Assembly: GCA_035221665.1 (NCBI GenBank)
Contig: CM069145.1
Span: 16,306,001-16,370,000 of the forward strand
Length of the DNA: 64,000 bases
From: Okamejei kenojei
Taxonomy: Eukaryota
Reading direction: 5' to 3'
Part shown: piece after piece, positions 57,801 through 59,662 of the stretch
Layout: every line of letters begins with the position of its first letter
Position numbering within the stretch: the stretch's first letter is position 1
Notes under the pieces: generated by a model
What the model was told of the DNA's origin: nothing
The model's database searches: none
Seen by the model: only the letters and a program-made list of their open reading frames with translations
Made by a program: the position numbers and the translations under genes

Positions 57801-58584
57801 TTCTTATCGAAATTGATGAGCAAGTGGACAGAAGAAAAATTCCAAACTGTGCGCACAGAATATGACCTCTCAACCCATTTTCTCCCTGCTGATCCTGATT
57901 ATTTTCCACCCAAAGAAAATGACAGGTGCACAGCAATATGCTGTGCTTTTTTTCATCAACAGGACATGTGTTCTCAATAAATCGGAAGAAAGTTGCACAC
58001 ACAAAGAAGCAATGGGATGGTCCTAATTTACTGCATTCAAAGTCGATAATGAAACACAGACATTAATGCTATTGAGAATTTAAGTCCTGATAGATGTCCA
58101 AATGTTTAATGTCACCAAGAGTGTTATCATGGCTGAGGATCTAATAAAGATTCATGTCAGAGAGGATGGTTCCAATTATGAAAAATAATGTGAAGTGATT
58201 GGCTACATTGGAGTTGAACGCAGCAATTAACATGCTAGCTGTAATGAAAAGCTCAATAGCATTATGACTATGCAATAGCATTGGCACTAACACAAGCAAT
58301 GGTCAATTCATGTACCTGTGGTCAGGCTCACAAGATTAGCCTATTGCCTGTTTTCAGATCAGAGCCCTTGGATCTTCCTCTTTAAGAAGTTGTGTCATTC
58401 ATAATGACTTCTCTGCATTGTTCTATTGGTATTCTATTTAGGATCAACTGCAGATCTCCCCTTCACCTTTTGGGCCAAACAATCGTATCCAAGCAGGTAC
58501 CAGTCACCCAAGTAGTCACCCATTCCTTCTCTCCAAAGATGCTGCCTGCCCCGCTACTTTATTCCAGCATTTTGTGTCTGTCTT

Positions 58585-58638
58585 GGGGTGGAAGATTGCA
58601 ACCTTCATGTGGTCCGCCCTGTTTCGACTAATGCAATC
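58585..58638 (+). ncRNA. Minimal HDV-like self-cleaving ribozyme fold
   Basis: P1 GGGGUGG/CCGCCCU with G1-U wobble; P2 GAUUGCA/UGCAAUC; P3 ACC/GGU; L3 UUCAUGU; GU after P1; J4/2 CUAA with catalytic-position C at 58628; starts exactly at the element's 5' end. Confidence 0.8.
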
Positions 58639-58725
58639 AACTCGACGTGCACAAACAGAAGATCAAATAGAACAAGTTGTCCTACAACTTTAGGCTGTGC
58701 ACGCCACACGAAAGAAGAAGAAGAA
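58585..58725 (+). mobile_element. 141-bp non-autonomous retroposon (SINE-like) with 5' ribozyme and (GAA)n tail
   Basis: Exact 11-bp TSD gtgtctgtctt (58574-58584, 58726-58736), tail aaagaagaagaagaa, no convincing tRNA-like head, no recognisable protein-coding content. Confidence 0.85.
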
Positions 58726-59054
58726 GTGTCTGTCTTCAGTGTAAACCAGCATCTGCAATTCCTTCCTACGCAATGCTATCTAAGCAGTGGAGCAATCAGG
58801 TGGAGGGAAACTGTACAGAGGCATTGAAAAGATGGATGAGGGATGTAGAGCATATGATGAAGTATACATTTGGTTTGCCTGTGTCACTTTCTTTGTTATT
58901 TTTCCCCTTTATTGCTAATTCATATGCACATAGTTCACCACATGAAAATGAATATATGTGTCATTAGAGAGAAAAGCCATGCAAATGTTTTGGTAAAGAT
59001 GGTATCATTGCAGTTTGTGTGTGACTTTTTATGAAACACAACTTGTTATGTTTC

Positions 59055-59662
59055 ATAACAAGAGGAGTTGAGTCTAGGAGCAGTTGTACAGGGCTCTAGC
59101 GAGACTACACCTGGAGTATTGTATGCAGTTTTGGTCTCCAAATTTGAGGAAGGACATTCTTGCTATTGAGGGAGTGCAGCATAGGTTCACAAGGTTAATT
59201 CCTGGGATGGCGGGACTGTCATATGCTGAGAAAATTGAGCGGCTGGGCTTGTATACTCTGGAATTTAGAAGGATGAGAGGGGATCTTATTGAAACATTTA
59301 AAATTATTAAGGGTTTGGACACGCGAGAGGCGGGAAACATGTTCCTGATGTTGGGGAAGTCCAGAACCAGGGGCCACAGTTTAAGAATAAGGGGTAAGCC
59401 ATTTAGAACGGAGATGACGAAAAACGTTTCAACACAGAGAGTTGTGAGTCTGTGGAATTCTCTGCCTCACAGCGCAGTGGAGGCTGGTTCTCTGGATACT
59501 TTCAAGAGAGATCTAGATAGGGCTCTTAAAGATAGTGGAGTCAGGGGATATGAGGAGAAGGCAGGAACGGGGTACTAATTGTGGATGATCAGTCATGATC
59601 ACATTGAATGGCGGTACTGTCTCGAAGGGCCGAATGGCCTCCTCCTGCATCTATTGTCTATT
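59055..59662 (+). mobile_element. Young 5'-truncated CR1 LINE
   Basis: Open 164-aa ORF2 C-terminus (59084-59578: LYRALARLHLEYCMQFWSP...RGDLIETFKI...TRGHSLRI...LWNSLP) and CR1 3' UTR ending ctattgtctat. Confidence 0.93.

Follow-up and report, generated by a model that had tools for sequence, protein, structure and literature searches.

A short retroposon headed by a minimal HDV-like ribozyme fold in Okamejei kenojei, and its probable descent from a Vingi-type LINE

What makes the exact 5' end of a short retroposon, and whose enzymes moved it? Both questions are raised by a 141-bp element in a 64,000-nucleotide stretch of Okamejei kenojei DNA (GCA_035221665.1, contig CM069145.1, positions 16,306,001 to 16,370,000 of the forward strand; hereafter the window), for which a sequence-only reading had proposed that a minimal HDV-like ribozyme of the CPEB3 type heads a promoterless, SINE-like unit that cuts itself out of read-through transcripts and borrows the enzymes of a LINE. 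Short internally deleted derivatives of LINEs (SIDEs) with a ribozyme at their head are an already known class. Bipartite non-autonomous LINEs have been described for RTE, Ingi, Vingi, and R2 (PMC5786205), the ribozyme-headed precedents include R2 SIDEs (PMC3414825) and NARTc and the SIDERs (PMC4035085), and reviews report that some LINEs and SINEs employ HDV-like ribozymes (PMC6765202) and that HDV-like ribozyme matches occur in sea urchin, lamprey, and lancelet (PMC8256844). HDV-like ribozymes that lack P4 are active in vitro, with about 99% of them found in gut Caudoviricetes, often beside tRNAs (PMC10879173); in the literature searched, we found no precedent for one in a vertebrate.

Layout of the element and its ribozyme fold

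The element occupies positions 58585-58725, ends in (GAA)n, and lies between exact 11-bp direct repeats (Table 1). The predicted cleavage site had been noted to coincide with the boundary of the target-site duplication, and it does: the cut would fall directly 5' of G58585, the first base after the left repeat. The surroundings are an older high-copy short repeat that the element interrupts, and contigs from four sequencing runs span both flanks and join across it, for example from 58584 to 58742/58743. Including those of the flanking repeat, contigs aligning to this stretch number hundreds to thousands in three of these runs and 56 in the remaining one, and the element is present in runs from at least nine organisms. 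Several contigs start at 58583-58585; the runs, 24 in all and each made up of contigs, are presumed to be RNA, and contig starts cannot show RNA ends. A check for a host gene gave no Pfam match for any of 19 open frames between 45.8 and 62.6 kb of the window. One 166-aa open frame at 59078-59578 (+), likewise without a Pfam match, is taken by us to resemble the 3' end of a CR1-type LINE.

Table 1. Features of the element and its flanks (window coordinates)
Feature	Positions	Strand	Remark
Left target-site duplication, 11 bp	58574-58584	+	Identical to 58726-58736
Minimal P4-less HDV-like ribozyme fold, 54 nt	58585-58638	+	Same fold at start of full-length LINE
P1, 5' strand	58585-58591	+	Partner 58614-58620; G1-U wobble at cut site
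P2, 5' strand	58594-58600	+	Partner 58632-58638; 7 Watson-Crick pairs
P3 (3 bp) plus 7-nt L3	58601-58613	+	P3 = 58601-03/58611-13
J1/4 plus 5-nt loop instead of P4	58621-58627	+	J1/4 = G58621 (P1.1 partner) + U58622
J4/2 (C-U-A-A), putative catalytic C58628	58628-58631	+	Second base U or G by subfamily
Part derived from LINE 1-80	58585-58663	+	73/79 identical to majority LINE 5' end
5' arm of 5'-3' helix, just behind ribozyme	58646-58653	+	8-bp inverted repeat
A-rich 18-nt linker at deletion junction	58664-58681	+	Without LINE alignment
LINE 3'-end part: last codons, stop codon (58691-58693), 3' UTR	58682-58720	+	37/39 identical to majority LINE
3' arm of 5'-3' helix	58696-58703	+	8-bp inverted repeat
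(GAA)n tail	58714-58725	+	Common to element and LINE
Right target-site duplication	58726-58736	+	Exact copy of 58574-84
Older high-copy short repeat interrupted by element	58515-58775		Contigs of four runs

Every ribozyme part described in the sequence-only reading was found, and in HDV order: P1, P2, P3, and P1.1 make up a nested double pseudoknot, in which the 7-bp P1 includes the opening G-U and one internal U-G. The active-site bases are likewise present, namely the G1-U wobble, the L3 U-G (in the window copy, the first base of L3 is U and its sixth is G), and the C of a C-N-A-A J4/2. A strict HDV descriptor matched once in the 64-kb window, both strands included, and not at all in 766,284 shuffled bases. 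P1.1 had been read as a single C-G; the pair itself (C58606-G58621) stands, and the junction is refined, with J1/4 best taken as two bases (58621-22) that supply the C-G pair plus a U-U contact, followed by a loop at 58623-27. One C-G pair plus a U-U contact is also the composition of P1.1 in the CPEB3 ribozyme (PMC9901934). The arrangement of J1/4 and 5-nt loop recurs in the parent LINE and in a second short family, both described below. By analogy with C75 of HDV and C57 of CPEB3 (PMC9901934), C58628 would be the catalytic base; it is retained in 56 of 60 full-length copies.

The pseudoknot-free minimum free energy of the fold is unremarkable (z -0.18), as expected for a pseudoknot. Comparison with HDV and CPEB3 models, which had been proposed as a check, came out negative: the window copy matched no ribozyme family in Rfam at E<=10, the best matches of an older-type copy (L055) were CPEB3 at 15.9 bits (cut-off 35) and HDV-F-prausnitzii at 14.4 bits (cut-off 44), and the RF00622 gathering cut-off of 35 bits is not reached by this element family. 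The strict descriptor is still fitted by only 19 of 69 sampled copies, and a possible competing 2-bp stem, 58621-22 with 58627-28 around a UUCG loop, would sequester the catalytic C. We regard the fold as confirmed to be that of an HDV-like ribozyme without P4, the minimal type, from which cleavage is a prediction; that the ribozyme was active in the source copies is quite likely.

In the family, L3 reads UUCACGU, the same heptamer that the Rfam CPEB3 consensus has, and the window copy departs from it at 58608. The suspicion that this was a CpG-type C>T change proved right. The change is private to the window copy, in which only 58608 and 58657 depart from the majority of its subfamily, each by a CpG transition. 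A "young subfamily" with a changed L3, drawn from the 40 best matches, was rejected: these matches had been selected for resembling the query, and CpG decay accounts for the change.

The genomic family and its parent LINE

Exact matches in the 2.76-Gb genome number 3,988 for a 24-mer from the 3' end and 9,563 for a 22-mer from the ribozyme core. Capture-recapture gives a family of about 22,000-24,000 copies, which is a lower bound because young copies are over-sampled. To avoid a bias towards full-length copies, 5' ends were studied in the first 70 matches to the 3' motif in order along contig C1, two of which represent one duplicated locus. The expected piling up of 5' ends at G1 is plain: similarity starts at position 1 in 51/70 copies and at positions 2-4 in 10/70 (61/70 at 1-4), and further in for 9/70, one of which, on checking, is a LINE end. 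Conservation is about 85% at G1 and at background one base upstream. Target-site duplications of 8-15 bp (median 11) flank 50 of 60 full-length copies, compared to 0/60 in a swapped-flank control, and the left duplication copy touches or overlaps G1 in 37 of the 50. The duplications begin with A in 37/50 and are preceded by a pyrimidine in 42/50, and base -1 is T in 30/60 full-length copies. With its many copies, subfamilies, tail, and target-site duplications all present, the family shows the marks of independent spread by target-primed reverse transcription (TPRT).

The two subfamilies (n=27 and n=33) lie 4.6% and 5.7% from their own majorities. Copies diverge at similar rates in helices (74/1,911, 3.9%) and loops (36/876, 4.1%), with 91/2,213 for the rest and 90/635 at CpG sites; single copies are not under selection, and their decay is neutral. 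Since decay is neutral and even, covariation has to be sought between families. Accordingly, the covariation in P1, P2, and P3 that had been suggested as a check is absent among copies and appears only between families (see below). Sampling by the ribozyme core gave 30 copies, every one of them a short element. Both the family and its parent LINE look inactive now.

The parent was found by means of a pattern of the last 21 nt combined with different upstream sequence. This gave 366 matches, and 18 of the 30 viewed are ends of a LINE. One copy (L261) is a full-length LINE of about 3.05 kb with an 8-bp duplication, two others are near full-length, and all three begin with the same 54-nt fold. 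The majority sequence of 53 fragments is 3,140 nt long and holds a single frame of about 1,000 aa, with an endonuclease, a reverse transcriptase (RVT_1 match), and a C-terminal Cys/His motif, ending about 300 aa behind the reverse transcriptase. A negation pattern placed behind J1/4 returned only short-element variants in 30 of 32 viewed matches, because the LINE has this part in common with the element.

The LINE protein has 649 database homologues at E<=1e-30. The 120 that were listed are mostly endonuclease-reverse transcriptase proteins of about 1,000 aa on contigs of about 3.2 kb, and the closest full-length one among them (P0001, 75% identical) has no RNase H match. In a tree in which the LINE sits among unnamed APE-RT proteins, it and its homologues are set apart from the RTE of the same genome by a long, fully supported branch. 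Vingi elements are defined by a single ORF of about 1,000 aa with APE and RT, no RNase H (in contrast to Ingi), and a length of about 3.1 kb (PMC13708176). The parent shares its single APE + RT frame, lack of RNase H, and length with Vingi-1_Acar, Vingi-2_Gav, Vingi-1_BF, and Vingi-2_SPur, and we call it Vingi-type by its fit to this definition. No intact copy of it occurs among the 150 protein matches listed. Most LINE fragments lie 4-12% from the majority, and to judge by divergence parent and derivative would have been active at about the same time.

The element consists of LINE positions 1-80, the linker, and the last 39 nt of the LINE. Because the parent has both of these ends, with the interior missing in the element, the latter is almost certainly a SIDE of the Vingi-type LINE, and the ribozyme was inherited from the LINE, the element being made of two LINE ends. 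The earlier picture of a SINE-like unit relying on LINE enzymes thus survives in its LINE dependence, the partner having been found, and falls in so far as it implied an independent SINE that acquired a ribozyme. Three fixed differences separate the LINE from the subfamilies inside the 54 nt, and each leaves the fold intact: a P1 pair goes from U-A to U-G, and J1/2 and J4/2 each differ in one base, which in J4/2 is the second. By eye, and from intermediates such as L372, the linker looks like stuttered copies of LINE positions ~69-78. The same LINE has at least two further deletion junctions, at positions ~90-97 (L189, L204, L209, L230).

Related folds, possible pairing of the RNA ends, and probable mode of spread

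A second Vingi-type family in the genome, with about 99% identity between copies, starts at G1 of a full-P4 HDV-like fold with a 2-bp P1.1. Five of 11 upstream pieces pass the scan (0/100 shuffles); of the remainder, three have the same start with single changes and three are truncated. Members of this young family (L383-L389, L393-L403) have open frames of up to 778 aa and, like the element, the word CATACGC before the tail. In two of its copies (L394, L395), the first ~11 nt are duplicated before G1, resembling the template jumps at R2 5' junctions. Beyond this genome, a strict scan of 80 metagenome homologue loci gave 2 matches, and when the criteria were relaxed and the sequence upstream of those 23 homologues that have an N-terminal part was scanned, 3 showed the fold about 200 nt before the endonuclease (0/230 shuffles). 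The other 20 of these 23 are without a fold in the relaxed scan; many appear truncated or decayed.

There is also a second P4-less short family (L429-L435, e.g., G000:C1:8173675) of about 165 bp, with CPEB3-type P3/L3, a (GAA)n tail, and duplications. A 21-mer from it has 1,485 exact matches, and it keeps the catalytic C, the G1-U wobble, and the L3 U-G. Its members start with four G, so that P1 would reach 7 bp only if base -1 were included; at the 3' end they are similar to L391/L392.

Across five elements of four families, 10/17 helix pairs are changed on both sides; between families this applies to 3/7 pairs of P1 and 6/7 pairs of P2. The G-rich P1 start, the G1-U wobble, the L3 U-G, the P1.1 C-G, and the J4/2 C are invariant in all five. 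The descriptor selects for pairing in this five-element table, and therefore only the location of the folds and the two-sided changes are independent. What P1 and P2 conserve between families is pairing, not primary sequence.

A further shared feature is a potential helix between the two ends of the RNA. It would join bases lying 5-8 nt behind the ribozyme to the final ~15 nt that precede the tail, over 8 bp in the element, and the two arms originate from opposite ends of the LINE. Such pairing is also found in the parent LINE (L262), the young family (7 bp, unrelated sequence), the second short family, and two metagenome elements (shuffle p 0.000-0.01 in those cases); in L263 and L435, both of them decayed copies, it is not significant. 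When arms of different families are combined, they pair at up to -14 to -15 kcal/mol, compared to -16.7 to -17.5 for own pairs, so that the specificity of the helix is moderately supported. Among 39 LINE copies, nine have 5' inversions; five of the nine break at positions 71-82, and two further inversions come from another set of copies. In L220, L223, L267, L268, L207, L216, L225, and L410, the first ~70-80 nt, which carry the ribozyme, are inverted and joined to a 3' piece. The pattern appears twin-priming-like, with a hot spot just behind the ribozyme. Deletion junctions at 80-97 fit the position of the 5'-3' helix, and both deletions and 5' inversions starting near 70-100 would be explained by a pairing that brings the RNA ends together.

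Our preferred reading, to which we give a probability of about 0.7, is that the element is a SIDE of a Vingi-type LINE whose P4-less ribozyme cuts 5' of G1 and which Vingi protein mobilises in trans; its fold and ends are observed, and cleavage is predicted from them. A source copy would be transcribed from an upstream host promoter or an internal promoter, and the ribozyme in its RNA would cut 5' of G1, so that all transcripts, irrespective of their promoter, would have the same structured 5' end. Vingi protein would then bind in trans to the 3' end common to LINE and element, nick a loose site between Y and A, at which the (GAA)n tail would prime, and copy the RNA by TPRT, giving duplications of ~11 bp. 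Nicking and TPRT are established steps of APE-type LINEs, and the sharing of the 3' end, the duplications, and the site bias are directly shown here. The young full-P4 family could in principle cross-mobilise the element. Pairing behind the ribozyme with the 3' end would probably bring the RNA ends together, and the fold may in addition shield the 5' end, as in R2 templates (PMC11331408). The RTE insertion signatures described in PMC6007223 provide no discrimination for the element.

Cleavage is likely the main maker of the element's 5' end, although an internal promoter with its start at +1 would also produce a sharp end. In L1Tc, a relative from the Ingi clade, and in NARTc, one and the same stretch, the first 77 nt, acts as ribozyme and as internal promoter (PMC3383444). 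By a dual signal of this Pr77 kind, the first ~80 nt of the element would mainly be a Pol II internal promoter at +1 and the ribozyme a real but secondary back-up, so that the element would not be promoterless. The retained LINE 1-80 is close to Pr77 in length (PMC3383444), Vingi and Ingi are sister clades (PMC13708176, PMC5786205), and dispersed insertion suits an element with its own promoter; the conservation of P1 and P2 as pairing rather than as primary sequence speaks against this account, which we consider unlikely.

Still less probable is that the fold acts as structure, either as cap-like 5' protection or as a protein site for second-strand joining, with cleavage slow or lost after the loss of P4. 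The missing P4, the possible competing mini-hairpin, and the few copies that still fit the strict descriptor would agree with such a role, as would the finding that a stable HDV-like fold raises the insertion efficiency of R2 templates (PMC11331408). However, neither the five elements compared (5/5) nor the second P4-less family has lost the catalytic C, the G1-U wobble, or the L3 U-G, and some process would still have to make the precise 5' end. A conventional Pol III SINE or RTE-dependent element with an incidental HDV-like pattern is very improbable and was rejected: a (GAA)n tail is present in the abundant RTE too, along with a related P3/L3 stretch at the RTE 5' end, and the element contains weak A/B-box-like words, but the RTE 3' end is unrelated (30 RTE loci have only the tail in common) whereas that of the Vingi-type LINE is 37/39 nt identical, 17% of shuffles give such box matches as well and sister families have none, and Rfam gives no tRNA, 5S, or 7SL family match for the element. 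RTE starts (L091:1220, L093:1249, L101) themselves show an HDV-like fold with a P1 that opens with C-G and a long P4 region; the two bases of their P1.1 are swapped, with G in L3 and C in J1/4, and P3 and the end of P2 look imperfect.

The preferred reading places the element among bipartite derivatives such as NARTc, RIME (L1Tc/ingi), the Drosophila R2 SIDEs, and the Vingi-1_EE derivatives, in all of which the 5' and 3' ends of a parent LINE are joined. NARTc and the R2 SIDE also have an HDV-like ribozyme at +1 (PMC3383444, PMC3414825), and bipartite non-autonomous LINEs are mobilised in trans (PMC3383444, PMC3414825, PMC5786205), as the element would be. At 141 bp it is shorter than NARTc (263 nt), and unlike the known SIDEs it has a ribozyme without P4 and a copy number of at least about 22,000, reached in the genome of a vertebrate. 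It resembles minimal HDV-like ribozymes (drz-Mtgn-1, theta) in the missing P4 domain and the size of ~55 nt; unlike theta ribozymes, it heads a vertebrate retroposon and is neither in a phage nor adjacent to a tRNA. With this family, P4-less minimal ribozymes, so far nearly all from gut phages, gain a vertebrate representative that is present in very many copies. Together the copies form a natural library of mutants and may supply introns with cleavage sites, and the element amounts to a 141-nt minimal cis template for Vingi, comprising ribozyme, 5'-3' helix, and tail. Vingi has been used with its native 5' and 3' UTRs in RNA-only gene writing (PMC13708176).

Probable kinship with the CPEB3 ribozyme

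The CPEB3 resemblance noted in the sequence-only reading was well seen, and would reflect kinship via the Vingi clade. The element shares with the CPEB3 ribozyme (RF00622) the L3 heptamer, the G-U J1/4, the P1.1 of one C-G plus U-U, a G-rich P1 opening with G-U, and a 2-nt J1/2; it differs in lacking P4, in having another P2 and P3, and in being multi-copy and mobile instead of a single intronic locus. Searching the genome with RF00622 gave at least 30 loci above the cut-off, with a best score of 66.8 bits, among 59 loci scored from a very large candidate set; the cut-off was reached in none of 14 control genomes. Three of 24 examined CPEB3-type loci (L413, L416, L418; G000 C14, C27) continue into a Vingi-type endonuclease reading, with tblastn E values of 1e-8 and 4e-13 and with L416 91% identical to L413. 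In L413:1511-1574 (+), the CPEB3-family ribozyme lies directly upstream of this reading. Seven of the 24 are the ~165-bp second P4-less short family, and the remaining ones, L436 left out, are 5' pieces without a clear downstream element. Sister Vingi-type families in this genome thus do exceed the CPEB3 cut-off, unlike the element, which by its sequence ranks as a cousin of the CPEB3 type, not a member.

Supplementary file 1 of PMC5786205 contains the 5' ends of Vingi-2_Gav, Vingi-4_Crp, Vingi-2_SPur, and Vingi-1_BF. An HDV-like fold is recognisable by eye in these named Vingi 5' ends, as it is in the element, which differs from the CPEB3-type ones in the sequence of P1, P2, and P3 and in lacking P4. 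By eye, Vingi-2_Gav from gharial is identical to the Rfam CPEB3 consensus at 52/54 compared positions (38/40 from P1 to the start of P4 and 14/14 from the end of P4 through P2). From the genome loci together with this match, we infer that the mammalian CPEB3 ribozyme is probably a domesticated, that is, fixed, Vingi 5' end.

Bendixsen et al. (2021) traced the CPEB3 ribozyme to the therian ancestor (PMC8233481). Neither "origin" nor "transpos" occurs in the main text of that paper, and a Vingi-CPEB3 link is absent from the relevant passages of PMC8233481 and PMC10919898. The ribozyme-bearing clades named in passages of PMC5786205 are R1, R2, R4, RTE, and Ingi as well as LOA, without Vingi, and its passages on Vingi do not remark on a likeness to CPEB3. 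Among the literature titles and abstract openings listed for Vingi and ribozymes, for the CPEB3 ribozyme and retrotransposons, and for Vingi in sharks or skates, none connects Vingi with the CPEB3 ribozyme. It is quite possible that the CPEB3 link or a P4-less vertebrate ribozyme has been noticed before.

The balance tips slightly towards a wider picture that joins these strands. In it, an HDV-like ribozyme would be the standard 5' module of Vingi, of which two independent P4-less versions were amplified here, to thousands and to tens of thousands of copies; the CPEB3 ribozyme would be the domesticated 5' end of a Vingi-2_Gav-like element or a short derivative of one, placed in the CPEB3 intron before the marsupial/placental split; and the 5'-3' helix would circularise Vingi RNA, explaining why two-ended derivatives recur. 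If true, this would provide a concrete and testable origin for the best-studied human ribozyme. In the alligator SINE2-1_AMi, positions 61-127 are a Vingi-derived segment with a P4 stem like that of CPEB3 (PMC5786205 supplement), and the changes in its L3 would probably silence cleavage.
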